Position numbers and translations under genes: made by a program | NCBI GenBank assembly: GCA_016784965.1 | Contig: JADHTQ010000004.1 | Span: 17,990 to 81,989, forward strand | Origin: Bacteriovoracaceae bacterium | GTDB lineage: Bacteria; Bdellovibrionota; Bacteriovoracia; Bacteriovoracales; Bacteriovoracaceae | DNA: 64,000 nt | Direction: 5' to 3' | Part shown: positions 13,913 to 60,620 of the stretch, one piece after another | Layout of the letters: every line of letters begins with the position of its first letter | How positions within the stretch are numbered: position 1 is the stretch's first letter | The notes under the pieces: generated by a model | Told to the model about the DNA's origin: nothing | The model's database searches: none | What the model saw: only the letters and a program-made list of their open reading frames with translations

Positions 13913-14030
13913 CGCGGACAATCCTCCGCATAATTTATCGGTATTTTTGGCATTTAACTTTAAAATCAAAGGGTTGTTGTGGCCCTGTTTGCCAATTTTT
14001 AAGTGCCTAGGGCCCAAACAAAGCATTTAG

Positions 14031-21530: not shown

Positions 21531-22030
21531 AAAATCGACCTTCTGCTTTAATCATAGTTCTTATTTGCTGGATTAATGTTTCCAGTGCTTATGGAAATAG
21601 CTCTGGGAGATTAGATCCTCATGGAAAAAAAGAGATTACATCTGTTAATTTTAATCAGGTCACATGTAGTATTTGCCATGAAGAAAACAAGTTACATACA
21701 GTAAGTGCCAAGATCATTTCTCACTGCCAAACTTGCCACAATAAATCTCCACATAGTGGGCTCAAAGAGCACCTAGGCAAAGATTTGACTAAATTGAACA
21801 TTGGCATAAAGGGCAATTTAAATTGCCTTTCATGCCATCGCCCCCATCGCTTTGTTATCAAAGATAAAAAGCAACATAAATTGATAAAAAGCAACAAATC
21901 TCCATCTTTAATTTTGCGACAAAAGTGGACAAAGGAAGAACTTGCTGACAATTTTATAGTTAAAGAAAACAAAACCCCCATGTTAAGAAGATCTTGTAGT
22001 GATTGCCACACCAAGGAAAATTTACAATGA
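21527..22030 (+). CDS. periplasmic tetrahaem c-type cytochrome
   Basis: ATG at 21527 forms an ATGA overlap with the upstream stop. Signal peptide MKNRPSALIIVLICWINVSSAYG. Four CXXCH motifs (CSICH, CQTCH, CLSCH, CSDCH). Confidence 0.75.
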   Translation: MKNRPSALIIVLICWINVSSAYGNSSGRLDPHGKKEITSVNFNQVTCSICHEENKLHTVSAKIISHCQTCHNKSPHSGLKEHLGKDLTKLNIGIKGNLNCLSCHRPHRFVIKDKKQHKLIKSNKSPSLILRQKWTKEELADNFIVKENKTPMLRRSCSDCHTKENLQ

Positions 22031-24009
22031 ATACCTCAAATCTTCTTTTTTGTTCAATGCTTTTATTGCTAAGCTCTAGGCTGCTTGCCGGTGGAGAGCT
22101 GCAGTTGCGCTATAAATTTAGAACAAAAGTAATTTCACCATCGATCACAACAAGATGTGGTACTGATATTTGTGTATATAGCTTGTACAACAATCAAATT
22201 ATTAGGCTTGATAAAAACTCGGGGAAAGTAAAGTACAACATTGATCTAGGCAAAAGGATATCTAACAATTTTAAAGCGACTGCTATCGAATTCTTGCAAA
22301 ATAGTTTTCTAATTGCAGGAGTATTAAAATCTGACCCAAAAAGCTATCCTCTCTACCTGTTACCTCTAACTGATAGTGCAAAAAAAATCACTTGGCCAGG
22401 TGAGCAAAAAACCCATATTAGAGATATTAACTGCACCCAAAGAGGTTGCTTGCTGTTTGCAAACAAAGTCCATATCAGCAAAAACCAAAAAAATTGGCAA
22501 GTGTTCTCTATTCCACGAAGTGTTGACATATTGCCGGTTGGCGGCGATCTAAAGAGCAACCCATTTTTTAATTGGCAAGAAAAATTTATCGTAAGCAGAG
22601 GGAGGTATACAAGTAGTACCACGGATAATGATAATAACTTATTTGTTTTAAACTCCCTACGCAGCACTGTTGCATTTACAGATGATTCAAAGTGGGATAA
22701 CTGGAAAAAATGGGGAAAGTGGGGCGTTTGGGAAGGACAAATGATGTCTCCTAAGGCCATAGCCTACCTTAATAACTACAATGCTGTAGCAGTCGCCGAC
22801 TCCGGTCTCAAATTCATTTTTGTCTTCGATAGACAAGGCCTATATATCGGTAAAATTTCTAGCAATCCAGATAATGAAAGGCGCTTTTTATATCCTATTG
22901 ATGTGGTGGCCATTAATGATGATCTGTTTGTCGCAGATTTTTTTGCTGGTGAGCTGATTGCAATCAATATTGTTAGTCTCACTAAACCAGATAACAAAAG
23001 GCCAAAAACTGTAGACGAATTTCTCCACAAAGACTTACTAAAAGACCTACTAGACACTCCACAAGCAAAACTTAATTACTCTAAAGAAAAATGTCTAGCT
23101 TGCCATGATGGCTCTGAGAGTTTTAACTTAGATAAGTTTGTAGGTATAAAAAATCACCACCCAATAAATGTTGAAGTAAAATCAACAATTAGCTTGCCTT
23201 TAAAAGATGGAAAGTTCATCGCTTGTAATACATGTCACGATCAACATCACGACAAAACTTTGCGCAAAGAATATAAGAGTCTATGCCTTACATGCCACCA
23301 GGATAAAGCTAAACAATCTTCCAATCATTTCAACCTAAACCTGGATTTAAAGTCAAAATTAGTGCCAGGGAAAAAAGTTTCAACTTGTAAGTCGTGTCAC
23401 GCTATCCATGAAAGTGAACATAACCTAAAAATAAAAACTAACTCCCAGTTATGCTTAGACTGTCATGGAACAAAGCAAGCACCAATCTCCCATCCTTTTA
23501 AAGAAGATCACGTCCATTGCCTATCATGTCACGCACTCCATGGAGCAAAAAAATCACATAAATTTGCAAGGCATTCCAAGCCAGAAGTTAGTGATACCTG
23601 TGTAACTTGTCACTATCAGCTAAAAGTTCACCTGGGCAAAAATAAGCATTTATCTAAAAAAGATGGAAAAGTTGCCCATCCCTGGCCAGGTGGTGAAGGC
23701 GTTTGTATGGATTGTCATAATCCCCACAAGCGTAAAAAGACGGTTAAAAAACTATGTCTTAGCTGTCATAAAGACAAAAAAAGAAGCCATGTCAAAAATA
23801 ACATTATCAGTAAAACAAAAAGGGCGAAAACGGTAAAACTTGATAAGGGTCAAATGAGCTGTTTTACATGTCACAACCACCACGGAATAAGTGAGAATAA
23901 AAAATTCATAAACAACAAAAAAGATATTTTAGGGTTTTGTTCAAGCTGCCATGGGGCGAAGTCCTCTAAACTACTTAATAATTATCATAAAAGATTAAAA
24001 AGAAAGTGA
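22027..24009 (+). CDS. NHL/beta-propeller-like domain fused to an undecahaem c-type cytochrome
   Basis: ATG at 22027 forms an ATGA overlap with the upstream stop, followed by a signal peptide. The N-terminal ~330 aa has NHL-like strands (YPIDVVAINDDLFVADFFAGELIAINI). The C-terminal half has 11 CXXCH motifs, many in CxxCHxxH paired context. Confidence 0.75.
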   Translation: MNTSNLLFCSMLLLLSSRLLAGGELQLRYKFRTKVISPSITTRCGTDICVYSLYNNQIIRLDKNSGKVKYNIDLGKRISNNFKATAIEFLQNSFLIAGVLKSDPKSYPLYLLPLTDSAKKITWPGEQKTHIRDINCTQRGCLLFANKVHISKNQKNWQVFSIPRSVDILPVGGDLKSNPFFNWQEKFIVSRGRYTSSTTDNDNNLFVLNSLRSTVAFTDDSKWDNWKKWGKWGVWEGQMMSPKAIAYLNNYNAVAVADSGLKFIFVFDRQGLYIGKISSNPDNERRFLYPIDVVAINDDLFVADFFAGELIAINIVSLTKPDNKRPKTVDEFLHKDLLKDLLDTPQAKLNYSKEKCLACHDGSESFNLDKFVGIKNHHPINVEVKSTISLPLKDGKFIACNTCHDQHHDKTLRKEYKSLCLTCHQDKAKQSSNHFNLNLDLKSKLVPGKKVSTCKSCHAIHESEHNLKIKTNSQLCLDCHGTKQAPISHPFKEDHVHCLSCHALHGAKKSHKFARHSKPEVSDTCVTCHYQLKVHLGKNKHLSKKDGKVAHPWPGGEGVCMDCHNPHKRKKTVKKLCLSCHKDKKRSHVKNNIISKTKRAKTVKLDKGQMSCFTCHNHHGISENKKFINNKKDILGFCSSCHGAKSSKLLNNYHKRLKRK

Positions 24010-35581: not shown

Positions 35582-37825
35582 TTAGTCCAAATAGTCTTTT
35601 AGTTTTTCATCTGCCTTGCGATAATATTCGCCATCAGATGGTGAAATTTGCTTCACTTCCTGTAGTTTTTCTTTTGCATCTTCAAATAAACTTAATGACT
35701 CTGAGATAATTGCTTCCCGATAAACTTTCTTGGCCCTATTTTTGAGAGTTCTTTTAATCTCCCCCATAGATGCCAGTGATTCACTATTGGATGGGTCATG
35801 ATTTAAAATTTCTAAATAATTTTCATAAGCTCCTTTTAAATCTCTTCCCTCTCTTAATGATCTGGCTTTGCCAAGCATGGGTGCCACTACTGCTTCAAGC
35901 TCCTTTTTTGAGTCTTTTAACATTTCAATACCCTGCTTGGTCAAGTCTTCATCCATCTCTTTTATTTGCAAAAATTCATCTAATTTAATTATGGCATTAT
36001 ACCATTCTTTGCGCAGAAAGTACTTTCTGCTAGGGATTAGCATCGCCTCTTTTCGTTTTCTTTCTGCTTCTTTTGCGGCTTTTTCTCTGGCTATTTTCTC
36101 CTGCTCTTTTTGCCAAGCTTGCAATTCATTTCTAAGCAGTGGAACTTCAAAATTTTCTGGATCCATTTCTAAAATTTTGGAAAATAGCCCCTCAGCTAGT
36201 GCCATATTTCTCTCTTTTGCCGCTTTTGTCGCCCTCTCCACCAATGTTTTAATTTTATCAGCTCTTTGTTTGCGCTCTAGCTCCTCTTGTTTTTTCCTTT
36301 CAATCTCTTCTAATCTAGCTACCCCATGCTTTGCTAGCTCATACATATCTTTTGAGTGTTTATACTCCTTATCAACTGGAAACATTAGTTCAAATTCATA
36401 TATAGCATTATTGTATTTTCCACTTTCAAAATGAGATTTTGCGACTTGATAGTGGGATTCTAAAAACTCTATCTGTTCGGGAGTTAACTTCTTTTTCAAC
36501 TTGGCCATTTTTGTGCTGTTTGGATCGATATTATTAAGCAATCGAGACTTCTTCGGTTTGCCCTTTTTACCCGTTTGCTTCTTACCTCCCTCATCATCAC
36601 CCATTACCAGCCATAATACTGCAAGGCCCACAAGACCATATATTAATTTTTTTCTCTTGACCGGATCTTTTAAAATTGAAGTTTTTTCTCCTGGCTTGAC
36701 TTCAGCTCCGGTTGATCCATCTTCTCCTTCCATCCCCTCTTCAAAGGCACCACTTACTTCTACAACTTCTTCTACCTCAACAATTTGGTTTTCCTCCACC
36801 GGCATTAAGCGTTCTTCTTCTGAACTAATCAGATCAGAAGTAATCCGAACGGTGAAAGTAGTGCTACCAATTATAAATTCGTCTTCATTAATTATCTCAG
36901 AACTATTAACCCTAACTCCGTTTAACAACGTTCCATTGGCAGATTGCAAATCTGTAATGCTTACCGCACCTTTTGCTTTTTTTATTACAGCATGGGTGCT
37001 AGAGACTTCTGGATCATTGAGGATTATCTGGCACTTATCTGCATCTCTACCAATTACCACATCTTGATCTTCAATGGTAAAACTGTCATATGGAGCATAC
37101 TCGCCAAATAATTCTAATGTATATCTAGAAAAAAACTGTACTATTTGAGTGCCACCATCGCTATCATCAAATGTATCTACTGGATATTCATCGGAAGTAT
37201 CTTCACCAGAATCATCCATTTGAAATTCGCTTGCAGATCCTTCTTGGTCGCTACTAAATTCATCGCCGCCTACTTGAGAATCATCATCACTGCTTGATTC
37301 ACTATCAAATGATTGGTCTTGTTCATCACTATCAGCGTCACTCTCATTATCACCACCGATGTCGCTCTCACCCTCGGCATCGCTGCCCGGCTCACCTTCT
37401 ACTTCACTTTCACTGTCATCTTGTAAACTCTCATCCCCCTCGCCAGCTTGTTCTTCTTTGGTAGTAGTAGTCTGTGTTTCCTCACTTTCATTAGTTTTTT
37501 TTTGAGCAAAGACTTGCTCAAGCATTACATAAATCGTGTACGGACCAACACTGATAATATCTCCTGCTGCAAGCTCCTTACTTGTGATAGTGTTGCCGTT
37601 GACAAGAAGCGTGGCAAAAGTTGCAATTTTTTCAATTTTCCATTGACTATTGTAAAAAGATATTTCCGCATGTTCGCGAGAAATTTGTTTGTCATCTAAA
37701 ATTACATGGCACTCTGGCGACCGACCAATATAGAACGAAACCTTATAGTCTTTGATATTTTTAACTTCATCAGTTAAATCTAGGTCTGTTTGTTTGTTGC
37801 CATTTTTATAAATACTAAGTCTCAT
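35582..37825 (-). CDS. double-FHA domain, single-pass membrane protein with TPR-like C-terminal region
   Basis: FHA1: FYIGRSPECHVILDDKQISREHAEI...NGN. An acidic Ser/Asp/Glu linker follows. FHA2: VVIGRDADKCQIILNDPEVSSTHAVI...SANGTLLNG. TM helix LIYGLVGLAVLWLVMG, then helical-repeat/coiled-coil sequence. Confidence 0.8.
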   Translation of the reverse strand: MRLSIYKNGNKQTDLDLTDEVKNIKDYKVSFYIGRSPECHVILDDKQISREHAEISFYNSQWKIEKIATFATLLVNGNTITSKELAAGDIISVGPYTIYVMLEQVFAQKKTNESEETQTTTTKEEQAGEGDESLQDDSESEVEGEPGSDAEGESDIGGDNESDADSDEQDQSFDSESSSDDDSQVGGDEFSSDQEGSASEFQMDDSGEDTSDEYPVDTFDDSDGGTQIVQFFSRYTLELFGEYAPYDSFTIEDQDVVIGRDADKCQIILNDPEVSSTHAVIKKAKGAVSITDLQSANGTLLNGVRVNSSEIINEDEFIIGSTTFTVRITSDLISSEEERLMPVEENQIVEVEEVVEVSGAFEEGMEGEDGSTGAEVKPGEKTSILKDPVKRKKLIYGLVGLAVLWLVMGDDEGGKKQTGKKGKPKKSRLLNNIDPNSTKMAKLKKKLTPEQIEFLESHYQVAKSHFESGKYNNAIYEFELMFPVDKEYKHSKDMYELAKHGVARLEEIERKKQEELERKQRADKIKTLVERATKAAKERNMALAEGLFSKILEMDPENFEVPLLRNELQAWQKEQEKIAREKAAKEAERKRKEAMLIPSRKYFLRKEWYNAIIKLDEFLQIKEMDEDLTKQGIEMLKDSKKELEAVVAPMLGKARSLREGRDLKGAYENYLEILNHDPSNSESLASMGEIKRTLKNRAKKVYREAIISESLSLFEDAKEKLQEVKQISPSDGEYYRKADEKLKDYLD

Positions 37826-38866: not shown

Positions 38867-40432
38867 TTAACTCTCCTGGATAAAGGTTATATAAAATGCC
38901 TTGGCAAAATTATCCTTTCCCATAATTGAGGTTACATATAAATTAAAATTCCTACCTGTAAGCTCATAACTACCATCTTGGCTAGTACCTCCATTGTTTG
39001 CAGAATTATCACATAGCTCAATTAAAGTTGCAGCAAATCCTCTCTCTTTGGCCACATCTAGAATGTTTTGTCCTTGAGAGACTGACATTCTAATACCGGT
39101 AATGTCTTCAGCATCTACATTTAACCGTTGTACATTTTTGGAAGAATCCAAAATCATAACCGGGACACCTGCTCCATTCATAAATTCTGCCAAAGATGTT
39201 ACATAAGGGGCATCATCTTCGGCTTCACCAAATTCTTCCTCTGTTCCATCACTTTGCAATTCTCTAATTCGCTGCAAAGTAGTATTTACTGCATTTTTTA
39301 AACTATCCAGCTCACCCATTAAATATTTGCCTTCAATCCCTTTTCTTTTGCCCCTTAGGGCCTCTTCCATTTGTAATGTCAGCTCTTCGATCGGTCTTAA
39401 AGTTAAAAAATAAATTACACCAAAAAATAACACTGCCACCAAAGCAGAAGTGGTGAGCGATTCTAAGTATGCCTTCGAATTTTTTGCGGCCTCTATCGCC
39501 AAAGATTTTGGACGAAATCTAATGGCAATTATTCCAACGGGCTCCATCGCCCCAGATTTAGCGTTATAGGCCATAATCCTTCCGGCAATACCGATTTGTC
39601 CACCTGGGAGCATTTTCTTTATAATACTGGTTCCTTCCCCCTTTACATTAACTGCCCACTCTCTGGCTTGAATGGAGAATGTATCTGAAATGAAATCATT
39701 GAGCTGTCCAATTGGCCTAACAATTCTACCTTCCAAATCAAACAGTTCGTAAGAAGCGACTCCCTGTTCTTTTTCCAAAAAGTTGGTGTTAACATTATCA
39801 AGATTATTTTGCTCAAGGGCGACAGCATTCATCCTGGCTATCTCATCAGCAAAGTGCTCCCCTCTTTTTGCAGTTTCCCATAGCAGAAGCTTCTTGCTAT
39901 CTTGTAAAACTGGAAAAATTGTAAGAGTAATTGTCACAAAGACAAATAAAGTAAGAATTAGCGCTATTAATATTTTCCACTCATATTCCTCATTGATTCC
40001 ATAAAGCAAAAGCATCAGCTTATACTTGAATTTATGCTTAATTTTTGCAATTAAACCAACAGGTACTTCATTACTACCATCAAGTGCTAACTGGGCACCA
40101 TCTTCATCGCTTTCTACTTCTTTGTGGATAATGATCTTTTTTTCCTTAACCAAAACTACTTGAATAATCAAGTTAGGTAGAGCAATTTTATCACCGCTTT
40201 TAACCGTCGCTCTTTTGATCATTTTTCCGTTCAAAAAAGTACCATTGGCACTTCCTTGATCTTCAACATACATTGCATCTTCTGTCACTGTAACACTAAG
40301 ATGTTTTTTAGAAACTCCAGGAACATCTATGCTTATATCTGCATCGGGGTCTCTTCCTAAAATATTTTCTCCCTCAGCAAGCTCAAACTCTTGCCCCCTT
40401 AATTTCCCAGCAACAATTACTAATTTATACAT
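38867..40432 (-). CDS. FHA domain, two-TM sensor-like protein with HAMP-like and PAS-like C-terminal regions
   Basis: NILGRDPDADISIDVPGVSKKHLSV...SANGTFLNG FHA motifs. Two TM helices flank a ~150-aa loop. An amphipathic HAMP-like linker precedes a C-terminal ~110-aa alpha/beta module. Confidence 0.7.
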   Translation of the reverse strand: MYKLVIVAGKLRGQEFELAEGENILGRDPDADISIDVPGVSKKHLSVTVTEDAMYVEDQGSANGTFLNGKMIKRATVKSGDKIALPNLIIQVVLVKEKKIIIHKEVESDEDGAQLALDGSNEVPVGLIAKIKHKFKYKLMLLLYGINEEYEWKILIALILTLFVFVTITLTIFPVLQDSKKLLLWETAKRGEHFADEIARMNAVALEQNNLDNVNTNFLEKEQGVASYELFDLEGRIVRPIGQLNDFISDTFSIQAREWAVNVKGEGTSIIKKMLPGGQIGIAGRIMAYNAKSGAMEPVGIIAIRFRPKSLAIEAAKNSKAYLESLTTSALVAVLFFGVIYFLTLRPIEELTLQMEEALRGKRKGIEGKYLMGELDSLKNAVNTTLQRIRELQSDGTEEEFGEAEDDAPYVTSLAEFMNGAGVPVMILDSSKNVQRLNVDAEDITGIRMSVSQGQNILDVAKERGFAATLIELCDNSANNGGTSQDGSYELTGRNFNLYVTSIMGKDNFAKAFYITFIQES

Positions 40433-50712: not shown

Positions 50713-51201
50713 ATGACTACCACACAGAGTAATGTCCCCAAACTACATCACGAAAAATTACAATCACTTATTACACAAAAGTCAGCATTATTTGATTTTA
50801 ATGAAAGCTTCATTGCTCAAGTCAATGAAGATGTACAAGTGCTAGACTCATACCTTCGATCCAAAACTGTCACCACCCAATGGTCAATTAGTGATTGGTA
50901 CAAACTGTTTTCAAAAAGTGTAATCCCTGATGACGTCATTATTTTTAATGATAAGCACACTCTCGAAGTTGCCCTTTGGAAGGAAGATGAAAAGAGTAAA
51001 ACTCTTCAGTTAACCTGGTGTCGAGCAAAAATTCAGTGGGACGCCAGCTGTTCTAGTAAATTCATATATACTGTGCAAGAAAGTGGTCCTTTGATAAGTG
51101 CTCCAATCGCTGTAAAAACCAAGCTATATAAACAGCTCCCCATCTTGTTGGAGTTTCTCTCAGAAAAAATCGCTAATAATACTGGTTATTTAGAACAATA
51201 A
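50713..51201 (+). CDS. hypothetical protein
   Basis: 162-aa ORF with AGGAGG RBS. No signal peptide and no motif recognised. Confidence 0.45.
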   Translation: MTTTQSNVPKLHHEKLQSLITQKSALFDFNESFIAQVNEDVQVLDSYLRSKTVTTQWSISDWYKLFSKSVIPDDVIIFNDKHTLEVALWKEDEKSKTLQLTWCRAKIQWDASCSSKFIYTVQESGPLISAPIAVKTKLYKQLPILLEFLSEKIANNTGYLEQ

Positions 51202-51406
51202 TTGGGGTCAATATGACACTAAATTTATAGTTTTTTACTACTAAAATATTACTAATCATTGTAATTAATACAAATACTTGAAAATTCCATCCGATACATT
51301 GACAAGTTATGTTGCGAGTGCAAAAGTCGCTCAATTATTTCTTCAGCATCTTTAATGGATTGCTGAGCAGATAAACTTTCAACATAACTTTTTAAGGAGA
51401 ATAAAA

Positions 51407-51634
51407 ATGGCAAAACAAGTTAGATTACTAAAATGTAAAATTGGAAAACCTTTCAGTGAGATCACTACAAGGTATGCAGTTGTTAGACCAAGCTCACTTC
51501 CAGACATGGTCACTCGTTATGGAATTATGCCTATGCCACCAAGGCCCTCATCAAACACTGTAAAAGTGGGAAGAACTTATAACATTGAATGTGAAAATGT
51601 CTTTACAAGAGACACTTACAGTGATGAAGAATAG
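51407..51634 (+). CDS. 75-aa candidate RiPP precursor peptide
   Basis: Strong RBS (AAGGAG 7 nt before the ATG). Lies immediately upstream of the radical SAM/SPASM gene. Internal duplicated motif TRYAVV-RPSS / TRYGIMPMPP-RPSS. Acidic C-terminal tail. Confidence 0.5.
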   Translation: MAKQVRLLKCKIGKPFSEITTRYAVVRPSSLPDMVTRYGIMPMPPRPSSNTVKVGRTYNIECENVFTRDTYSDEE

Positions 51635-51681
51635 GTCATAAAAATCTTTTACATATCTTAATTGATATGTAGTATAAATTA

Positions 51682-51722
51682 GGGTCAGGTTTGTTTTTTA
51701 AAAAGACAAATTTGGCCCTTTT
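51682..51722 (+). terminator. hairpin plus short T-run between precursor candidate and maturase (possible attenuating terminator)
   Basis: GGGUCAGGUUUGU (51682-51694) pairs with ACAAAUUUGGCCC (51706-51718): 13 bp including three G-U pairs and an 11-nt loop, followed by TTTT. A second 8-bp hairpin, TACATATC/GATATGTA, lies just upstream. Confidence 0.4.
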
Positions 51723-51748
51723 AAATTAAGTTAAGGGAAGGGAATGTC

Positions 51749-52837
51749 ATGGTCTCACAAATATCGAAACTATATAAGCCAGACTTTAAACCGTCTGAAC
51801 TACCACCTGAATATACCCCAAGGTCCGTGGTTTTAGAGACCACTTTTGCCTGCAATATGAGGTGCCGCCATTGTGGGACTTCGTGTGGTGATATTAAAAC
51901 TGATGAGTTATCTCTAACAGAACACTTACAGTTAGCTAGTGAGCTGGCGTCTCTGGGTACCAAAGAAATATTTCTTTCTGGTGGAGAAGCATTGATGAAT
52001 CCCGACTGGATCACAATCGCCAATAAGTACGACGAGCTTGGAGTTCGCGTAGTTTTGCTATCTAATGGACTCTTAATTCCAAAAAATATTGAGGCAATTA
52101 AAAAGGCCCCTTTAGATCAAATTGCTATCAGCATTGATGGAATGGAAAAGACCCATGACCATATAAGAAAAGTTAAAGGCTCTTTTAAAAAATGCCTAGA
52201 AGCAATCACACTGATTGAAAAACAAACATCAATTAATACCTCAGTCATAACCACAGTATCAAAGTGGAATATCTCTGAGCTAGAAGATCTATATCAGGCG
52301 TTAATTGCTGTAGATAATCGTTTATGGCAACTACAAAGAGTCTTCCCCACCGGTAGAATGGATAAAGATTTCATTTTAGATTTTGATGATATTGAAAAGC
52401 TTCACAAATTTATCCATGATAAAAGACAAAATCAGTCTAAAATGATTATCACTGCTGCTTGTGATGCAACGCCGTTTTCTAAGTACAATACCAGGGATAT
52501 TGGCGACCAATATATGGGGTGTCCTGCAGGACTTGTCTGTTTGGGAATTGAGGCAAATGGCAACGTTAAAGGCTGCTTGACTCAATCTGAAGAATTTATA
52601 GAAGGAAATGTACGAAAGAAGGGGTTAACTGAAATTTGGAATAACCCTTATAATTTTGCATATAATCGTTTTTTTCACGACGATAAAGTAAAAAAGGGGT
52701 GTGTTGGTTGCGCTTATCTTGAAGATTGTCGTTGCGGTTGTGCCATCCAAGCATTTGCTGAGTCTGGTGACCGCTATGATCAGCTATTTTGTCTAAACTC
52801 ACAATATTTCAAAGACTATAATGAACAAAATAAATGA
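51749..52837 (+). CDS. radical SAM enzyme with C-terminal SPASM domain (peptide-modifying maturase-like)
   Basis: CNMRCRHC (CX3CX2C) near the N-terminus. C-terminal Cys-rich region GCPAGLVCLGIEANGNVKGC...GCVGCAYLEDCRCGCA is typical of SPASM auxiliary clusters. 362 aa. Confidence 0.8.
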   Translation: MVSQISKLYKPDFKPSELPPEYTPRSVVLETTFACNMRCRHCGTSCGDIKTDELSLTEHLQLASELASLGTKEIFLSGGEALMNPDWITIANKYDELGVRVVLLSNGLLIPKNIEAIKKAPLDQIAISIDGMEKTHDHIRKVKGSFKKCLEAITLIEKQTSINTSVITTVSKWNISELEDLYQALIAVDNRLWQLQRVFPTGRMDKDFILDFDDIEKLHKFIHDKRQNQSKMIITAACDATPFSKYNTRDIGDQYMGCPAGLVCLGIEANGNVKGCLTQSEEFIEGNVRKKGLTEIWNNPYNFAYNRFFHDDKVKKGCVGCAYLEDCRCGCAIQAFAESGDRYDQLFCLNSQYFKDYNEQNK

Positions 52838-54953
52838 TGAAAAACGATATTCATATGCTTATTTACTAAAATATTTCTACTCATTTGTAAAAAAATACAT
52901 CTTACAAGAATTTGCCGTTACACTCTTAATTGGACTAAGTATCACCGTTAATATCGGCATTCCTCTTATCAATAAAACCTTGGTAGATGATGCTATTATT
53001 GCCAAAGATCTATCTCTGCTTTTTAATATCTTATATATCTACATCGGTATCATTTTGGGGGGACAGCTAATTAACGTCACTATGGAGTACTTGCAAAACA
53101 GTGTGCAAGAGAAGATCTCCATGGATATTTATAAAATGCTGTTTAAAAAAATGCTTAGTATGAAGATGCTACCTCTTAACAACTTTTCCAACACAGAGAT
53201 AGTTAATCGCTTTATCATGGATGCAGATGCCATCAAATCTTTAATCGCTGACTTTTTTATTACGGTACTCACCCAAATAATTTATTTTTTGGGTATCCTG
53301 GTGGTGATGCTGTCGCTTTCATGGAAGCTAACTATACTGGCATTAATTCCAGTCCCCATTTACCTGGTCACTTTTTTATTCTTTAATAAAAAGATCAGAG
53401 TTATTTCTAGGCTCCTTCGCAATAAGTTTGATAACTTAACCCAATTTATTAATGAGAGTTTTTTGGGGTCTACTGAGATAAGAATTTCAGGTAGCACCAA
53501 TTTTGTGTATTCAAAGTTTCAAGATAAAATCCTCTCTATTTTCAATGTGGCAATGAAAAGTGTCGTCCAAAGTAATGCCATTTCAGTAGTCATAGGTCTT
53601 ATAACCGCTTCGGGCAACTTGATTTTATGGTTTTATGGAGGATATTTAGTTATCGAAGGCCAGCTAAGCTTGGGCACCCTCTTTGCGCTTTCTGCTTATA
53701 TCGGTCAATTATACGATCCCATAAATATCTTGGCAGGTAGAAATTTTAAAATTCAATCTTCAATCTTTGCCATCGAGCGAATCCATGATTTTTTAAACCA
53801 ACCCCAGGAGCCCCTTTGGGATCAAAGCGAGTCTAAATATGAAAAAGGCTTTAGGGATTCTATCAAAGTATCAGGACTATCATTTAATTACCCAGAATCA
53901 ACTGATCTTGTAATCGATAATAAATCATTTGAGATAAATAAGGGTGATCGAATTTTGTTAACCGGTGCTAATGGATCGGGCAAGTCTACATTCATCAATA
54001 TTTTACTTCGCTTATATGATCACCAGCTAGGTGTAATTAAAATTGATAACACAAACATCCAACAAATTCCCATCCAGCAGTATAGAAGCCTATTTGCTTA
54101 TGTGCCTCAACACCCCTTTTTATTTGAAGGAACTGCTACCAGTAACATCTCGATGTTAGATACAAACGCTAACTTAAACAATTTTAAAAAATTCTTATCT
54201 AGGCTGCCTTTTTTAGACTTCTTCTCTAAAAAAAGTGGTCCCTATTCGGTCAGCAACAATGGCAACAACTTATCAGGTGGACAAAAGCAAAAGCTCAGCC
54301 TACTTAGATCTCTATACAAAGATGCACCAATAATCATTATAGATGAAGGGACTTCCAATATTGATGCCGAGTCTCTTTCTAAATTTGATCAATTTATTGA
54401 AAATAATTTGCAAGACAAAACTATCATCAGGGTTTCCCATAACCAAAATGAACATCTAAAAAATTATAAATTTATCCATTTTGACCGCATCATGCCCCAA
54501 GTATATCAAGATAAAATTATAAAATTAATACAAGAAAATAAACTAGACAGTGCAAAAGAGGCAATTGAGTCCCTGTTAAAGCATTATCAAGACATCAATT
54601 TATTTAAAAACTTGGCCTTTATAAAGTATATGCAAGGCAATTTCTCTGAATGCCTTACACTTAATCAAAAGGCATTACAAATTGATCCCGGTGATGTCTA
54701 CGCCACCAAGGGGCTAGGTCTGGCCTTCGCTAAACTGGGAGACTTAGAAAAAGGAATAGAGCATTTAAAGTCGGCCCAAACCCTTGATTCGACATACTTT
54801 GATCCATTTTACGACATGGCCGTAATATACTACGAAAATGGACAATTTGAAAATGCCTTAAAAACACTAAAGTTGACTCCTGTTAGCTCAAATGAGGAGC
54901 GGGACTTAGTTGCAAACTTTATCCAGAGTATAAAAAAAGATGACAAGATATAA
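52821..54953 (+). CDS. ABC exporter (fused TMD-NBD) with C-terminal TPR extension
   Basis: Six predicted TM helices, Walker A GANGSGKST, signature LSGGQKQKLSLLRSL and Walker B IIIIDEGTS. A ~150-aa TPR-like tail follows (FKNLAFIKYMQGNFSECLTLNQKALQIDP...). No N-terminal C39 peptidase domain. Overlaps the rSAM gene by 17 nt. Confidence 0.8.
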   Translation: MNKINDEKRYSYAYLLKYFYSFVKKYILQEFAVTLLIGLSITVNIGIPLINKTLVDDAIIAKDLSLLFNILYIYIGIILGGQLINVTMEYLQNSVQEKISMDIYKMLFKKMLSMKMLPLNNFSNTEIVNRFIMDADAIKSLIADFFITVLTQIIYFLGILVVMLSLSWKLTILALIPVPIYLVTFLFFNKKIRVISRLLRNKFDNLTQFINESFLGSTEIRISGSTNFVYSKFQDKILSIFNVAMKSVVQSNAISVVIGLITASGNLILWFYGGYLVIEGQLSLGTLFALSAYIGQLYDPINILAGRNFKIQSSIFAIERIHDFLNQPQEPLWDQSESKYEKGFRDSIKVSGLSFNYPESTDLVIDNKSFEINKGDRILLTGANGSGKSTFINILLRLYDHQLGVIKIDNTNIQQIPIQQYRSLFAYVPQHPFLFEGTATSNISMLDTNANLNNFKKFLSRLPFLDFFSKKSGPYSVSNNGNNLSGGQKQKLSLLRSLYKDAPIIIIDEGTSNIDAESLSKFDQFIENNLQDKTIIRVSHNQNEHLKNYKFIHFDRIMPQVYQDKIIKLIQENKLDSAKEAIESLLKHYQDINLFKNLAFIKYMQGNFSECLTLNQKALQIDPGDVYATKGLGLAFAKLGDLEKGIEHLKSAQTLDSTYFDPFYDMAVIYYENGQFENALKTLKLTPVSSNEERDLVANFIQSIKKDDKI

Positions 54954-55878
54954 CTTTATAACCTTACTTACAATAGCTACTTTTTTAATCAACACAAGCG
55001 CTACTGCTCTTAACATTACCCTCGACCACAATTTATCTGCCAAACTTGAGGCGGGATATCTCTATCAAAAAAGCTCTAAGACCTCTAAGTTTTTTTTACA
55101 AAGGTTCTATTTGGGCCAAAATTTATTTATTGATCAACAAAGTAAAATCAAGCTTGGAGCAGACCTATATGCTGATAACTATCAAAGTAGTTCCAAGCAG
55201 TTTAAGCTCATCTACGGCTACTATGAAAAAAAACTTTCATCTATTTCAAAAAGTAAATTTAGGATTGGTTTGCTACAAACCCCATGGATTAGCTGGATGG
55301 ATAATTTCTGGGGTAATCAAGTCATCTCAAGTTCGACCCTTTTGCAAATGCAGCACACTCACAGTCAAGTAGACACGCTACCTGAAAAAAGTGAAGTAGG
55401 ACTTTCTTTTGAACAATGGAAAAATAAATTTAATTACTACTTAAGTGTTACTAACAAACTAGATGCCTTAGATCCTACATTTTCTTTTAGAATGGGTTAT
55501 TTTCCCTACGTAAATGAGAAATCACTTAGTAAAAATAGCATCCTTGTATACAGCAGATTAAGTACCAACAGACAAGTTGAATCCAATATTGTTGGAGGTG
55601 TGATCTCCACTGGGTACCAAGATACTTTTCACCTCTACTTTGAGTCAATGTACTTCTTTTTGCCCAAAATTCACTCAAGTGGTATCTACCTAAATGTCAA
55701 GTTACTAGATGAGCTCTACAGTTTTTTTAGATATGTATATAATGATGATAACCTGAACCTCGATTCATCTAATGTTTTTGATATGGGCTTTAAGTATAAA
55801 TTAGACAAATCAACGACGCTATTTCTTTCTTTGGCGAATAGATCCGCCTGGTCCCTCTTTCTAACAGCAAAATTTTAA
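54940..55878 (+). CDS. outer-membrane beta-barrel (porin-like) protein
   Basis: Signal peptide (ITLLTIATFLINTSATA), alternating beta-like segments and a terminal Phe (LFLTAKF). Overlaps the ABC gene by 14 nt. Confidence 0.5.
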   Translation: MTRYNFITLLTIATFLINTSATALNITLDHNLSAKLEAGYLYQKSSKTSKFFLQRFYLGQNLFIDQQSKIKLGADLYADNYQSSSKQFKLIYGYYEKKLSSISKSKFRIGLLQTPWISWMDNFWGNQVISSSTLLQMQHTHSQVDTLPEKSEVGLSFEQWKNKFNYYLSVTNKLDALDPTFSFRMGYFPYVNEKSLSKNSILVYSRLSTNRQVESNIVGGVISTGYQDTFHLYFESMYFFLPKIHSSGIYLNVKLLDELYSFFRYVYNDDNLNLDSSNVFDMGFKYKLDKSTTLFLSLANRSAWSLFLTAKF

Positions 55879-55882
55879 AAAT

Positions 55883-57043
55883 TTAGATCCAGACTCCGGG
55901 TATCTGCTCGCCACAGGAGCACTTGCCACCTTGTAATAAATTATTTTGGATACTATATCCATTTCTTTTAATTACATGGGTTTTGCATTTTGGGCAGATT
56001 GTATCTTGATAGTCACTACCTGGGACATTTCCTACATAAACAAAATGAAGGCCTGCAACTTTGGCCACTCTGTAGGCTTCCTCTAAAAGGGGGATCGGGG
56101 TAGAAGGAAGATAGCGCAAATTGTACGCTGGATGAAATCGAGAAAAATGCAGTGGCACATCCCTGCCTAAATTTTCTACAATCCACTTACACATCTGCTC
56201 TATATCTTTTAAATCATCTGAGTGGTGGGGAACAACTAACCTGGTGATCTCTATCCAAACATCATTTTGTCGCATAATCTCAAGGCCCTTTAAAACTGGG
56301 GCAAGCTGAGCATTGGTCATTTTTTTATAAAAAGAATTACTAAAACTTTTTAAATCTACATTGGCGGCATCAATTGATTTACATAACTGCTTTAAGGGTG
56401 ACTCGTTTATATATCCCGCTGTTACTAACACATTTTTAACATTATTGTTTTTGGCCACAAGGGCCGTATCTTCTACATATTCATAAAAAATTATGGGCTC
56501 TGAGTAGGTATAGGCAATTGAAGTAAGTTTTTTCGCTTTTGTTAGCTCCACTACCTTTTGTGGCATTAGGTCCATATTTGTAGTTTCGCCTGGACGAGAT
56601 TGAGATATTTCCCAGTTTTGACAGTTTGAGCAGCGCAAATTACAACCGGCAGTGGCCAAGGATAAAATACCTGTTCCGGGTAAAAAATGATAAAGGGGCT
56701 TTTTTTCTATGGGATCAATGTGCAAGGCACAGGGGTTACCATAGGCCACAGTATACAACTGATTATTTTTAACTACCCTTGTTCGACAAAAACCTCGATC
56801 ATTTTCGGCCAATATGCATTGATGAGGACATAAACTACATTCCACCATACCACCAACACTACTTTGCCATAGGGCCTTTTTAGACCACTTCCACAAATTT
56901 GCTGGTGCATCGTTATAAAACCCTACTCTGAGCCCATAACGATTATTTCCAGTTATTATGTCATTGATCGTATAAGCGCCTAAAGCTGTGCCACCTGTGG
57001 CTATGATGAACTTTTTTAAAAATGTTCGTCTGGTGACTGACAA
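55883..57043 (-). CDS. AmmeMemoRadiSam-type (PflA-like) radical SAM enzyme carrying an N-terminal twin-arginine signal
   Basis: CSLCPHQCILAENDRGFCRTR, CNLRCSNCQNWEIS (CX3CX2C) and C-terminal CPKC...CSCGEQIPGVW match that family's pattern. The N-terminus (M)SVTRRTFLKKFIIATGGTALGAYT fits the (S/T)RRxFLK Tat consensus. TTG start 7 nt after AAGGAA. Confidence 0.7.
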   Translation of the reverse strand: MSVTRRTFLKKFIIATGGTALGAYTINDIITGNNRYGLRVGFYNDAPANLWKWSKKALWQSSVGGMVECSLCPHQCILAENDRGFCRTRVVKNNQLYTVAYGNPCALHIDPIEKKPLYHFLPGTGILSLATAGCNLRCSNCQNWEISQSRPGETTNMDLMPQKVVELTKAKKLTSIAYTYSEPIIFYEYVEDTALVAKNNNVKNVLVTAGYINESPLKQLCKSIDAANVDLKSFSNSFYKKMTNAQLAPVLKGLEIMRQNDVWIEITRLVVPHHSDDLKDIEQMCKWIVENLGRDVPLHFSRFHPAYNLRYLPSTPIPLLEEAYRVAKVAGLHFVYVGNVPGSDYQDTICPKCKTHVIKRNGYSIQNNLLQGGKCSCGEQIPGVWI

Positions 57044-57121: not shown

Positions 57122-58099
57122 TTAGAAGGCTTTTTTGATCACATTGTCTCGAATGGGGATTGGATCTTGCAAATATTGGTTCAGGGCAGAAACTAGCTTT
57201 TCAATGCTTTCTGATTGTCCCTGTAGAGATCTTACAAGATGTGACATATTTACTACGCCACCTTTATCTTTTGCATGATACCCAACTTTATCCCACAAGG
57301 CCTTAAGGCACTCTTCAAAATCCTCAATGGTTTGGTCTTGCAAGGCATCCGTTGCAAAAAATCCATTTAGTAAGGTTAACACTATAGAGAAAGTAATACC
57401 TACAATACTTGAGTTTAGGGCAAAAGAAATTTGGGTTAAAAAACTTGCAATTACCTCTTTGGCCGATCCCGGATCACCAACTAAGTCAAGTCCGCCAATA
57501 ATGGGCAGAGCACCCATCATTCCCAAAAATGTTCCAAGAATACCAAACACAATCATCAGGCCTGGAATAATTTGTAAAAAGCGACTAAGTGAAGGAATTG
57601 GAAGTATTCCAAATAAAACATTACTATTATTTGATTGCGAAAATATTCTGTGGGAAAACTCTTCAAAATTTGGAGTTCCATCACTTTGGCTGTACAATTC
57701 TTTATGGTGAACATCTTGCACTAGTTCATACAAGCTTATATCATATTTAAAAATAACATCCAACCTAGTCCTACTTTTATCAAACCTTCTGTGTTGATGA
57801 GCTCTTCTTTTGGTTACATACGAATCAAGTGCCTTATCACAAACCTTGTGTACAACCTCTTTATACCTATCGATTATTGACTCATTGTCATGTATATCAT
57901 CTTCTAAGGTTCCCTCTTTGTTGTAATAGTCCATTTCCTTTTTAATAAATACGACAAACCTATTATCGATCTTAAAGCTTTGTTTAATTAACACTTTAAG
58001 GATTATTGAGACAAAAAAGACCACTATCATAGCAGGGACTAAGTTGTTCATGAGACCTAGAACATAAATATTATAAATTTCGCGAAAAATATTTTCCAT
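57122..58099 (-). CDS. MotA/TolQ/ExbB-family proton-channel protein (3-TM ExbB-like topology)
   Basis: IIPGLMIVFGILGTFLGMMGAL carries the family G-x-L-G-T-x-x-GM motif. A second C-terminal TM pair partner is ISFALNSSIVGITFSIVLTLLNG. One N-terminal TM helix and a ~130-aa loop. RBS GAGG lies 13 nt after the upstream stop. Confidence 0.7.
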   Translation of the reverse strand: MENIFREIYNIYVLGLMNNLVPAMIVVFFVSIILKVLIKQSFKIDNRFVVFIKKEMDYYNKEGTLEDDIHDNESIIDRYKEVVHKVCDKALDSYVTKRRAHQHRRFDKSRTRLDVIFKYDISLYELVQDVHHKELYSQSDGTPNFEEFSHRIFSQSNNSNVLFGILPIPSLSRFLQIIPGLMIVFGILGTFLGMMGALPIIGGLDLVGDPGSAKEVIASFLTQISFALNSSIVGITFSIVLTLLNGFFATDALQDQTIEDFEECLKALWDKVGYHAKDKGGVVNMSHLVRSLQGQSESIEKLVSALNQYLQDPIPIRDNVIKKAF

Positions 58100-58112: not shown

Positions 58113-60620
58113 TCACAGTTTTATAGTGTCTAAATATTCTAAATCCTTCTTTGTGAGTGCTTTTACCAGGGAAAGTTTAATTTCTACTCTCCTTGATAAT
58201 CGACAATCATAGGGCCCACATCTTTGTTTATCTGCAACACTGGCCAGCTGTCGTGTAGGAGCAGATAAAACAATGGACTCCGCGTGAGAGCTGCCCTTTA
58301 TAGATGCTATATTTTGCATTTTCCCTCTGTTTTTTAAACTGATGGGAAAAGTTTTATGCTTGTTTATAAATAAAAAGCGGTAAACAGCGGCAGCACGCTG
58401 AAGACTTAGGTCCATATTGTAAGAATGAGCTACCTTATTTACTGCCGTCGGAGAAACATAATGTCCAACGTATCTGGGACTTGAGTGCCCTTCGATGAGA
58501 ATCTTGTCCACTTTGGCCCTTATTTGTTTGTTAGAAAAAAAGTACCTTAAAATTATTTTAGAGGTACGCAAAAGCCTCATTTTCATCCTGGTGCTGAGTA
58601 GATAACTATCAACTTTAAAAAGTAAGTCATTTACAAAGACAAATGAAATTTCATTTTTAATTCTGTCATATTTGACTATGGCATTACCACCAACTGCTCT
58701 TGTTAGTAAGGTCTCTAACTTGTCATAGTTGTTTACTTCTGCAGGGGTGAGAGTTCTATATTTTTGCAGCTGTTGGTTAGCTCGCCTCAAATGACCGAGG
58801 CTCTCTCTTAAAGTGGAGTTGTCCTTACTTAGATCTCTATTTTTTTTGCCTAATCTATCAAGCCCCAATAACTTTAAAAGAGACTTCTCCTGCTGTTTGG
58901 CCTGCTTTGCAAAAGCTCCCCTTTTTAGAGTTTGAAATGGATCAACAGCAGACTGAGCTCGTACAATTTGAGCAGATTTTTCTTTGGCCTTTACTAGTTG
59001 TCTTCGCAGTTTTCCAATTACATTTCTGCTGTTTTGAATTGCCTTATCATTTTCACCAATCATCTCTTTGAGCTGCCCATTGGTCTTTGCTATGCCTTCT
59101 AACTTCTGTCTAACTTTACCACCCATAAGCTTACTCTCGCCCAGGGCATTCTTCAGATCACCAATTTGTTTACGCAGAGCTGACAACATTTCTTGCTGTC
59201 TTTTGACCTGACCGGCAGCATTTTTATTTAACTCCTCCAGTGCCTGCTTTTGACTTTTTGCAACTGAAGCTGTTTTGCGACTTGCCTCTATCATTTTTTC
59301 TTTGGCATGTAGTTGGGCAGTCTTCTCGTTGATTTCATTTTGATTCTTCTGCAGCATCTGTTTATATTTTTCATTAGCCGCTTTTAAATTATTTAACTCA
59401 AGTTGTGCGGCTGTTGCTGTTTTGCGACTTGCCTCTATCATTTTTTCTTGTGCATTTAGTTGGGCCGTCTTCTCATTGATCTCATTTTGATTCTGCTGCA
59501 CCATTTGTTTATATTTCTCATTGGCGACTCTTAAAGTATCTAACTCTTTTTGAGCACTGGCATTTGTCATCTCCCTTTGTTGCAGGGCACTTTTTGCTTC
59601 CGCCATGTCTTTTGAAATTTTATCAATTTTAGCTTTTCTTATTTTTGCTAGCTCTATACTTTTTTGATATTCATCTTTATAGTCTTCTAGTACCTTCTTA
59701 CTATGAACTAGCTCTAATTTAGCGAGTTTTGCGGCCTTGATTAGTTTATCTGTCTGCTTAATTAGCTTTTGCTTCTTACTAATTTCAAGTTGTTTTTGTT
59801 CAATTGTTTGCTTTAATTTACTATTAACTTCCTCAGTTTTAGCAAACTTTTGTTGAACTTGTGAACTCTCCAACTCTCTTTGCTTTAAGCTTTCTTTCAT
59901 CACGTCAATTTTTTTACTTAGCTGTGTTATTTGCTCTTGTTTGTTCTGTGATAGTTGTTCAACTTTTTTATAATCTTCTTCGACAATCTTTTTCTGCTGC
60001 GCCATGGCCTTTTCATGGTCCCTGGCAGCTTTTATCATTTTATTTTTAATCCTTATGACTTCTGCTTTTTTAGATATTTTTTCCTTATTATTTTCAATCT
60101 GTCTTTCATACTCTCGCTTTACATCTTCAAGTTTTTTGAGCTTCACTTTATTTTTTACTACCTTGTCAGCTTCAACTTTTAAATCACTCTCAAGCATCTT
60201 AACTTTTTGAGCAAGGGCCTCAAGTTTGGTGTGCTTTCTTTTACTAAGTGCCGCAATTTTCATGTAATCGGTCTTATAATCTTCAATGATCTTCTTTTGA
60301 TTTTTAACCGTCTCAACAAAGGTATTCATCTCCTGAAGCTTTTGTTGCCAATCTTCCATATCCTTATACGTCTGCTCTAAGGACTCGGTTCTTTTTTGTA
60401 CATTATGGGTAATTTTAGTTGGGATATCTTTGTCAACGTTGATCTTTTCGTCTTCAAATTCCTGCTTTAAAACAGCAGTATTGATCCCTTCTTTTACCGC
60501 ACTAAAAATGTACAACATCAAAAAGATGATAAACAAGACAGTAAAAAGATCACTGTAGCTTGCCCAAAACGTACCATCTTCACCTTGTTTCTTTTTTAAT
60601 TTTTTTGCTAATTTATTCAT
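58113..60620 (-). CDS. MotB-like protein: MotB-type TM/plug with conserved Asp + ~570-aa coiled coil + OmpA-like peptidoglycan-binding domain
   Basis: WASYSDLFTVLFIIFLMLYIF matches the MotB W-x-x-Y-x-D-x-x-T-x-L TM motif. A long K/E/Q-rich heptad region follows. C-terminal IEGHSSPRY...DLSLQRAAAVYRFL...LSRRVEIKL is OmpA-like. Confidence 0.7.
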   Translation of the reverse strand: MNKLAKKLKKKQGEDGTFWASYSDLFTVLFIIFLMLYIFSAVKEGINTAVLKQEFEDEKINVDKDIPTKITHNVQKRTESLEQTYKDMEDWQQKLQEMNTFVETVKNQKKIIEDYKTDYMKIAALSKRKHTKLEALAQKVKMLESDLKVEADKVVKNKVKLKKLEDVKREYERQIENNKEKISKKAEVIRIKNKMIKAARDHEKAMAQQKKIVEEDYKKVEQLSQNKQEQITQLSKKIDVMKESLKQRELESSQVQQKFAKTEEVNSKLKQTIEQKQLEISKKQKLIKQTDKLIKAAKLAKLELVHSKKVLEDYKDEYQKSIELAKIRKAKIDKISKDMAEAKSALQQREMTNASAQKELDTLRVANEKYKQMVQQNQNEINEKTAQLNAQEKMIEASRKTATAAQLELNNLKAANEKYKQMLQKNQNEINEKTAQLHAKEKMIEASRKTASVAKSQKQALEELNKNAAGQVKRQQEMLSALRKQIGDLKNALGESKLMGGKVRQKLEGIAKTNGQLKEMIGENDKAIQNSRNVIGKLRRQLVKAKEKSAQIVRAQSAVDPFQTLKRGAFAKQAKQQEKSLLKLLGLDRLGKKNRDLSKDNSTLRESLGHLRRANQQLQKYRTLTPAEVNNYDKLETLLTRAVGGNAIVKYDRIKNEISFVFVNDLLFKVDSYLLSTRMKMRLLRTSKIILRYFFSNKQIRAKVDKILIEGHSSPRYVGHYVSPTAVNKVAHSYNMDLSLQRAAAVYRFLFINKHKTFPISLKNRGKMQNIASIKGSSHAESIVLSAPTRQLASVADKQRCGPYDCRLSRRVEIKLSLVKALTKKDLEYLDTIKL
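59269..59562 (-). repeat. tandem duplication, 2 x 147 nt (49 aa), inside the coiled-coil region
   Basis: GCTGTTTTGCGACTTGCCTCTATCATTTTTTC... recurs at 59269 and 59416. The protein copies are ANEKYKQMVQQNQNEINEKTAQLNAQEKMIEASRKTA and ANEKYKQMLQKNQNEINEKTAQLHAKEKMIEASRKTA. Confidence 0.85.

Follow-up and report, generated by a model that had tools for sequence, protein, structure and literature searches.

The 64,000-nucleotide stretch of Bacteriovoracaceae DNA analysed here (the window) contains, at positions 51407–55878, an operon whose most likely function in this predatory-type bacterium is to produce a 75-residue peptide, cross-link it chemically and export it. The cassette is of a type already known, in which ribosomally synthesised, post-translationally modified peptides (RiPPs) undergo maturation by a radical S-adenosylmethionine (SAM) enzyme carrying a SPASM domain. 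Its new elements are the precursor family, the divergent maturase clade and an ATP-binding cassette (ABC) exporter fused to tetratricopeptide repeats (TPRs). The probability that the 75-residue peptide is the substrate of the radical SAM enzyme and is exported was estimated at roughly 0.7. The cluster consists of four open reading frames (ORFs) of 75, 362, 710 and 312 amino acids on the same strand:

51394–51399, forward strand: Shine-Dalgarno sequence AAGGAG, 7 nt 5' of the ATG of the small ORF, read directly from the sequence
51407–51634, forward strand: putative precursor peptide gene, 75 aa; an ORF with a homologue (P0122) and coding-like codon usage
51749–52837, forward strand: radical SAM/SPASM peptide maturase, 362 aa; predicted from Pfam, NCBIfam, alignment, an AlphaFold2 model and fold matches
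52821–54953, forward strand: ABC half-transporter, with a transmembrane domain (TMD) followed by a nucleotide-binding domain (NBD) and a C-terminal TPR tail, 710 aa; assigned with Pfam
54940–55878, forward strand: ORFan of 312 aa with coding-like codon usage, in translational coupling with the exporter gene

The small ORF is separated from the radical SAM gene by 114 nt (51635–51748), the radical SAM and exporter genes overlap by 17 nt, and the exporter gene overlaps the 312-aa ORF by 14 nt. These coordinates and the AAGGAG sequence agree with the preliminary description of this DNA, which had listed four ORFs, a strongly initiated small ORF and overlaps of 17 and 14 nt. The in-frame codon-usage scores of the four ORFs were 0.21–0.33 (0.26 for the small ORF and 0.21 for the 312-aa ORF), compared with a mean of 0.39 ± 0.16 for the genes of the window and −0.51 ± 0.19 for off-frame windows. 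All of the cluster proteins have 100% identical entries at NCBI and ENA, which are labelled merely "radical SAM protein" or "hypothetical protein".

The search for relatives of the maturase revealed only three sequences of more than 50% identity among 5.8 billion proteins, all from metagenome-assembled genomes (MAGs) of the Oligoflexia, another class of the same phylum as the Bacteriovoracaceae. In two of the corresponding loci (L004 and L007) the orthologous radical SAM gene is preceded, at a distance of 92 nt, by a 69-aa ORF, P0122. The same two assemblies contain a decayed paralogous copy of the cassette (L005 and L006; L005:7887–9119) that has 79% nucleotide identity to L004 and no exporter. 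In this copy the precursor gene has a deletion of its 5' part, and what is left of it continues in frame into the radical SAM gene, which has lost the CRCGC segment of the SPASM motif. The C-terminal part of the precursor is still recognisable, and the second cysteine is retained in the L005 remnant. The contig of the remaining relative (L003) starts 42 nt before the radical SAM gene, so that its precursor region is cut off and uninformative. Every relative whose region is intact thus has the small ORF upstream of its orthologous maturase gene, and the gene order of radical SAM enzyme, ABC exporter and TPR protein was kept in L003 and in L004/L007. The preliminary description had made its proposal depend on conservation of the small ORF beside orthologous maturases, which was found as the homologue in L004/L007 and as the remnant in L005/L006; the core of that proposal, a RiPP-like cassette of precursor, radical SAM/SPASM enzyme and TPR-tailed exporter, is supported by this comparative evidence. 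A metagenome scan with clade-specific radical SAM patterns recovered no new member of the clade; its hits were confined to loci of the sister family described below and a fragment with the same sequence as the window.

P0122 is 42% identical to the window precursor (MAFFT alignment; BLASTP 9e-09), indicating that the small ORF is conserved as a protein in another class of the Bdellovibrionota. The two sequences share 27 invariant columns, including VRL, CK, RYA, VTRY and TY-I-C-N. The N-terminal segment M-x-K-x-VRL-x-x-CK is conserved and the C-terminus of the window precursor is acidic (SDEE). The window precursor contains just two cysteines, C10 and C62, and P0122 keeps both of them. Three of the four tyrosines in each precursor stand in a Tyr-x-Val/Ile context: RYAV, TRYGI and TYNI for the window precursor, RYAI, TRYAV and TYDI for P0122. 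The candidate motifs are encoded as follows:

51473–51481, forward strand: codons of Y23-A24-V25, first candidate motif (RYAV; kept as RYAI/RYAV in P0122), a putative modification site
51518–51526, forward strand: codons of Y38-G39-I40, second candidate motif (VTRYGI; VTRY invariant in both precursors), a putative modification site
51578–51586, forward strand: codons of Y58-N59-I60, third candidate motif (TYNIxC), also kept by P0122 and the L005 remnant

The third motif extends to TY-x-I-x-C-x-N in the window precursor, P0122 and the L005 remnant. Only two distinct precursors were found among the 5.8e9 proteins, both within the Bdellovibrionota; a profile built from the two recovered no further member from the same set, and tblastn detected no second precursor copy in the window. 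Judged from these searches, the precursor family is real but very rare.

Two hairpins were predicted between the precursor and maturase genes:

51650–51671, forward strand: short hairpin of 8 bp, directly 3' of the precursor stop codon, in the centroid structure of the RNA fold
51681–51719, forward strand: hairpin of 18 bp followed by TTTTAAATT, found by the terminator scan; likely a partial terminator (attenuator)

The long hairpin of the window gave a fold z-score of −4.0, and none of 200 shuffled sequences folded equally well. An equivalent long hairpin occupies the same position in L004 (z-score −4.6, no shuffle as stable), and the order of short hairpin, long hairpin and U-rich stretch after the precursor stop codon is common to both loci. 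The position right after the precursor gene is classically occupied by read-through terminators in bacteriocin and RiPP operons, and the sequence at 51681–51719 likely acts as such an attenuator between the precursor and maturase genes.

The 362-aa protein was matched by the Pfam models Radical_SAM (5.5e-26, 92.1 bits against a cut-off of 29.5) and SPASM (3.1e-07, 31.0 bits against a cut-off of 21.5). The CxxxCxxC motif of the SAM cluster, which in this superfamily lies in a partial TIM barrel, is C35-x3-C39-x2-C42, and the complete seven-cysteine SPASM motif was found as C258-x12-G-x4-C276, C318-x2-C321-x5-C327-x3-C331 and C348. The SPASM cysteines are kept across an alignment of 29 sequences, and the C-terminal SPASM-type cysteine cluster noted in the preliminary description is thus fully present. 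SPASM domains with seven cysteines for two auxiliary clusters have been described (PMC10114670). The protein has no RiPP recognition element (RRE) domain, as merely 34 residues precede the CxxxCxxC motif.

No NCBIfam model reached its cut-off for the maturase; absences of individual models are given here with respect to the best 25 hits. The best-scoring models were TIGR04133 (rSAM_w_lipo; 166.7 bits, cut-off 425), TIGR04103 (nif11-class maturase 3; 160.2 bits, cut-off 725) and TIGR03913 (GDL-motif; 158.4 bits, cut-off 591.75). All three represent peptide-associated SPASM maturases that, like the window enzyme, have no N-terminal extension of the size of an RRE, although the window precursor is neither nif11-like, as for TIGR04103, nor of the GDL type, as for TIGR03913. 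To our knowledge none of the three families has been functionally characterised. The mycofactocin and PQQ maturase models scored below their cut-offs (MftC, 104.5 against 265; PqqE, 85.8 against 381), and the cassette contains no PqqD/MftB-type RRE partner or other gene of the mycofactocin or PQQ pathways. The anSME model was not among the best hits, no sulfatase gene is adjacent, and anSME was only a mid-rank fold match. In the hidden Markov model search the maturase reached the cut-off of none of the non-peptide families, such as anSME or a cofactor clade, that the preliminary description had named as a possible alternative.

Sequence comparison with the PDB gave SkfB as the first hit (1.4e-19), followed by BlsE, which is a cytosylglucuronate decarboxylase, PqqE, MoaA, CteB and SuiB. 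The alignment-based AlphaFold2 model of the maturase had a pLDDT of 88.9, and its best fold matches were SkfB, PqqE, CteB and SuiB, with similar TM-scores for BlsE, anSME, MoaA and ChlB. SkfB, PqqE, CteB and SuiB, which stand out in both the sequence and the fold comparison, are RiPP maturases. The fold search did not tell the chemistries apart, since SkfB, PqqE, CteB, SuiB, anSME and ChlB all gave TMq values of 0.63–0.71.

The exporter was resolved by Pfam into three parts:

about 52917–53720, forward strand: TMD (ABC_membrane, residues 33–300)
about 53916–54353, forward strand: NBD (ABC_tran, residues 366–511)
about 54600–54881, forward strand: TPR repeats (TPR families, residues 594–687)

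These matches confirm the TMD-NBD exporter with a TPR tail that had been read from the sequence. There was no Pfam Peptidase_C39 match in the exporter, in which the TMD begins at residue 33, and NCBIfam models of peptidase-containing ABC transporters matched only from model position ~130–170, past the peptidase region. The matches to the NCBIfam MsbA and type I secretion models were all below cut-off. The domain search as a whole bore out the preliminary description of a cluster with no protease, no C39 domain and an unfamiliar precursor.

In the window the exporter carries the TPR module as a fusion; in L003 and L004/L007 a separate gene after that of the exporter encodes it, with a gap of 29 nt or an overlap of 4 nt. 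The window tail is 39–44% identical to the stand-alone TPR proteins of L003, L004 and L029. The fusion of two adjacent genes of the cassette argues for a physical or functional link between their products. Vulcanimicrobiota loci have a stand-alone TPR protein, with 41% identity to the tail, encoded directly upstream of sister-clade radical SAM genes with no exporter nearby, suggesting that the TPR module may travel with the maturase family and not with the transporter. Exporters of this fold have a cytoplasmic C-terminus, which would place the TPR tail in the same compartment as the precursor and the maturase, where it could serve for docking. The precursors of the TPR-linked clades end in acidic sequences (SDEE, DSENN or poly-Asp/Glu tails), which recall, speculatively, the ligands of TPR carboxylate clamps.

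The wider radical SAM family was examined in a genome scan that gave 80 loci; the peptide counts refer to 79 non-redundant genome loci. In a neighbour-joining tree the window clade formed a separate long branch. The largest sister group, from Zixibacteriota, Ignavibacteria and others, has radical SAM enzymes about 40% identical to that of the window with the same seven-cysteine motif. Forty of the 79 loci (L008, L009, L013, L015, L017, L018 and others) encode one to four tandem peptides of 31–61 aa upstream of the radical SAM match, at approximate locus positions 3400–4600. These peptides have an N-terminal M[IVF][YF]L[IV]DP sequence, a Cys-rich middle and a P[LMC]YG[VI]P sequence near the C-terminus. 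The pattern Y[GAS][VILT] occurs in all 55 unique peptides of this family and YG[VI] in 51 of them, the latter being the motif that Y38-G39-I40 of the window precursor fits. The two loci examined in detail, L008 and L009, also encode a 445-aa Clo7bot/ranthipeptide-like radical SAM enzyme, and L009 a B12-dependent one. An ABC exporter homologue was present in 46 of 90 loci; no TPR homologue was detected in the loci of the MIYLIDP sister family. No NCBIfam model and no literature was found for the MIYLIDP...PLYG[VI]P peptides.

A third family of small ORFs, of 66–100 aa, was found upstream of sister-clade radical SAM genes in six loci (L014:5155–5376, L059:5499–5699, L029:3489–3794, L028:5419–5775, L056:152–424 and L033:379–642). 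A Cys motif and the segment L.E..H[DN]MG are conserved among its members, which end in a strongly acidic tail. L028 and L029 also encode two radical SAM paralogues together with a TPR protein that shares 41% identity with the tail of the window exporter, and a Pro/Met/His-rich protein is encoded downstream in L028, L029 and L056. Three clades of the enzyme family thus each adjoin their own family of small peptides. By this gene context the enzyme family as a whole is peptide-associated, which argues against a role in a cofactor pathway. A literature search found no paper on radical SAM RiPPs from Bdellovibrionota, Bdellovibrio or Zixibacteria, and a compendium of the field (PMC10288494) contains no mention of Bdellovibrio, Zixibacteria or TPR.

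In the pathway that we infer from this anatomy, the 75-aa precursor would be translated from its strong ribosome-binding site, and the conserved hairpin would let part of the transcripts through, yielding precursor in excess over the enzymes. The N-terminal segment M-x-K-x-VRL-x-x-CK would serve as the recognition region. The maturase, with one SAM cluster and two auxiliary clusters, would abstract a hydrogen atom and install oxidative cross-links, for which the most likely sites would be the three Tyr-x-Val/Ile motifs, giving small tyrosine macrocycles as in triceptides. The cytoplasmic TPR tail, fused here and encoded by an adjacent gene in relatives, may dock the peptide or the maturase, and the ABC half-transporter would move the product to the periplasm. 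The secreted 312-aa ORFan would be a lineage-specific addition that could form a conduit through the outer membrane, confer immunity or act as a receptor. A tyrosine-centred, triceptide-like cross-link is proposed because the motifs are conserved here and the sister family carries Tyr-Gly-Val/Ile. In the sister family the ranthipeptide-like enzyme plausibly handles the Cys-rich part, which would leave Y-G-[VI] as the natural target of the window-type enzyme. This specific Tyr-x-Val/Ile chemistry is a tentative proposal that may well be wrong. A fuller version, in which a new Tyr-to-Val/Ile cross-link is shared with the Zixibacteriota/Ignavibacteria family, the TPR module replaces the RRE and the product leaves through a private outer-membrane channel, is unlikely to hold in all its parts; the TPR domain fused to the exporter NBD may, as one of these parts, clamp the acidic C-terminus of the precursor.

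Triceptides are defined by a link from an aromatic residue to a C-beta within motifs of an aromatic residue and two others, and their synthases join the aromatic ring to the C-beta of the third residue of the motif (PMC11499958). The triceptide clusters of XyeB, ChlB, HaaB and HtkB resemble the window cassette in having repeated aromatic-x-x motifs beside a single radical SAM/SPASM enzyme, and the structure of ChlB matched the fold of the window model with a TMq of 0.67. The likeness of the motifs is at the sequence level only, comprising Y-A-V, Y-G-I and Y-N-I in the window and Y-A-I, Y-A-V and Y-D-I in P0122. The window maturase differs from the triceptide synthases in having no sequence-level membership in the known cyclophane-synthase families, and the third position of the window motif is a branched hydrophobic residue, unlike HTK, HAA, HNR and YDR (PMC11499958).

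The darobactin system also resembles the cassette, being from a diderm and having a precursor, one radical SAM/SPASM enzyme, an ABC-type exporter and no dedicated protease. Its operon comprises the precursor gene darA, the ABC-type exporter genes darBCD and the radical SAM/SPASM gene darE. The darobactin core differs in being Trp-based and of seven residues, its tripartite exporter includes a fusion protein and has no TPR module, and the DarW and DynA models were not among the best NCBIfam hits of the window maturase. The chemistry of DarE has been described (PMC9055067). The MIYLIDP sister family is alike in its ~40% identical radical SAM/SPASM enzyme, its downstream ABC exporter and the Tyr-Gly/Ala-Val/Ile motif of its peptides. 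It differs in that the peptides are short (31–61 aa), Cys-rich and often in tandem, and are accompanied by a second, ranthipeptide-like radical SAM enzyme and sometimes by a B12-dependent one.

Several findings weigh against the proposed pathway. With no more than two distinct precursor sequences, the conservation statistics are thin. What links the clades by Tyr-x-Val/Ile is a motif of three residues, which is missing from the third precursor family. The maturase is without a detectable sequence relationship to known cyclophane synthases: the YhhB, AmcB and GrrM/OscB models were absent from the best NCBIfam hits, and ChlB was absent from the PDB sequence hits at E<=0.001. The NirJ2 and AhbD models scored only about 30 bits under the best peptide-maturase models. 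The peptide is a predicted substrate, in which the two invariant cysteines could instead be thioether donors. There is neither an RRE nor a protease to account for recognition and for removal of the leader. Neither a membrane-fusion protein nor a TolC-like partner was found among the cluster genes and the flanking genes scanned, and the 312-aa ORF is absent from the relatives and is not conserved.

The most serious of the competing explanations keeps the cassette but has the maturase form thioether bridges of the sactipeptide or ranthipeptide type from C10 and C62, with the tyrosine motifs serving structure or recognition. Neither cysteine varies between the two precursors, the second also persists in the L005 remnant, and the closest structure by both sequence and fold is the thioether-forming SkfB, with CteB also near. 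The StsB, SkfB and PapB models were among the NCBIfam hits, but their scores were far below the cut-offs (100.9 against 625, 93.3 against 300 and 71.4 against 340 bits). C10 also sits in the putative leader. AlbA, CteB and SkfB carry an N-terminal RRE domain, which the 34 residues before the cluster motif of the window enzyme do not provide, and the sister family has a separate ranthipeptide-like enzyme that would handle its Cys-rich part. Thioether formation is considered unlikely, if the best placed of the alternatives.

A second explanation holds that the product is not diffusible and is a small cross-linked protein of the periplasm or envelope, by analogy with the gamma subunit of quinohemoprotein amine dehydrogenase. 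In that diderm system the radical SAM/SPASM enzyme QhpD cross-links a small protein in the cytoplasm and a dedicated ABC half-transporter, QhpF, exports it. The length of the window precursor (75 aa) and the lack of a protease or C39 domain are consistent with such a product, and an MsbA-like half-transporter with no membrane-fusion or TolC partner would fit delivery to the periplasm only. The cassette differs from QhpC/QhpD/QhpF in that no genes for dehydrogenase or partner subunits are present in it or in its relatives, and the maturase falls outside the Qhp family, the quinohemoprotein maturase model not being among its best NCBIfam hits. A hairpin attenuator and very fast divergence of the precursor are more typical of secreted peptides, and a periplasmic protein of this kind appears distinctly improbable.

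Epimerisation within the same cassette would convert Val or Ile to the D-configuration with no change in mass. YydG and EpeE epimerise Val and Ile, the residues in which the conserved motifs of the window precursor end. EpeE (introduced in PMC13012085) was among the fold matches, but only at ranks 41–49 with a TMq of 0.48–0.53 and an rmsd of ~10 Å, and it was absent from the PDB sequence hits. Epimerisation would also leave the invariant tyrosine two residues upstream unexplained, and we give it little credence. Least of all is it probable that the enzyme acts on heme or another cofactor in the manner of NirJ or AhbD, with the small ORF as an unrelated neighbour. NirJ2 (139.7 bits) and AhbD (136.3 bits) come near the best peptide-maturase score of 166.7, but each stays far short of its cut-off of 500. 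The cassette adjoins no genes of the heme or siroheme pathways, the small ORF, exporter and TPR module are co-conserved, and three clades of the family each stand beside their own small-peptide family.

The 312-aa ORF downstream of the exporter encodes a Sec-type signal peptide with an A-T-A cleavage motif, cut at about residue 23. Its N-terminal hydrophobic segment has a mean hydropathy over 19 residues of 1.68, and the mature product peaks at 0.89 and is without a transmembrane helix. The product contains no cysteine and 15% Tyr plus Phe, ends in W-S-L-F-L-T-A-K-F with a C-terminal Phe, and shows an alternating hydrophobicity of the beta type (hydrophobic moment z = 2.5 against shuffled sequences). 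No homologue was found among 5.8e9 proteins in a word-index search or among 1.84e9 representatives with full phmmer, and there was no PDB sequence match or Pfam match at E<=10 and no NCBIfam match. The single-sequence AlphaFold2 model had a pLDDT of 31 and was unusable. The porin-like barrel of the preliminary description was therefore not confirmed by any family, structure or homologue, and only the sequence traits fit an outer-membrane protein (OMP). The product is possibly a secreted, beta-rich protein of the outer membrane, and its membership in the system is uncertain.

The gene that follows the TPR gene in L003 (3456–3959) encodes a 167-aa polytopic membrane protein and overlaps the TPR gene by 8 nt, and in L004/L007 the corresponding gene (L004:8205–9500) encodes a signal-peptide-bearing protein of the beta-lactamase/S12 family. 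The slot after the TPR module differs in each relative and may be a place for accessory functions particular to a lineage, for example in processing, immunity or passage through the outer membrane. The export route across the diderm envelope suggested previously is likewise unsupported, because the cluster genes and the flanking genes scanned include no membrane-fusion or TolC-type protein and the barrel itself found no support. RiPP clusters of other diderms can include genes for OMPs, membrane-fusion proteins and TPR-like proteins (PMC10352776), in light of which outer-membrane export is a reasonable idea and, for this cassette, a conjecture.

Radical SAM/SPASM enzymes have been a repeated source of new peptide cross-link chemistry, darobactin being a new antibiotic scaffold, and the cassette offers a compact and testable pair of precursor and enzyme from the Bdellovibrionota. 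The Tyr-x-Val/Ile motif would link it to a far larger uncharacterised peptide family, so that one assignment of function could cover hundreds of clusters. The gene fusion is a clue that the TPR module, and not an RRE, may couple maturation to export. Should the chemistry prove to be of a known type, the cassette would be one more uncharacterised RiPP cluster among thousands.

A 162-aa ORF (window 50713–51201, forward strand) precedes the precursor gene by 205 nt and is read in the same direction; it has no family match and is probably not part of the cassette because it is absent from the related loci. A radical SAM enzyme of the AmmeMemoRadiSam system (55883–57043, reverse strand; 387 bits against a cut-off of 220) is convergent with the cluster and was rejected as a member, belonging to a separate, well-defined family on the opposite strand. 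The start of this ORF, MSVTRRTFLKKFIIATGGTALGA, resembles a twin-arginine export signal (the listed start codon, TTG, is putative), which would be unexpected on a cytoplasmic Fe-S enzyme. The next genes on the reverse strand encode a 325-aa membrane protein with weak similarity to ZorA/MotA-ExbB (57122–58099) and an 835-aa protein (58113–60620) with an N-terminal MotB plug, a coiled coil of ~600 aa that SMC/Rad50 models hit weakly, and an OmpA-like domain at the C-terminus. Together they form an unusual stator-like pair with a long coiled coil on the B-type subunit. Elsewhere the window encodes a 2460-aa protein with LVIVD repeats (6644–14026, reverse strand), a multihaem cytochrome with MtrC/MtrF-like domains (22003–24009, forward strand) and two FHA-domain proteins (35582–37825 and 38867–40432, both reverse strand).

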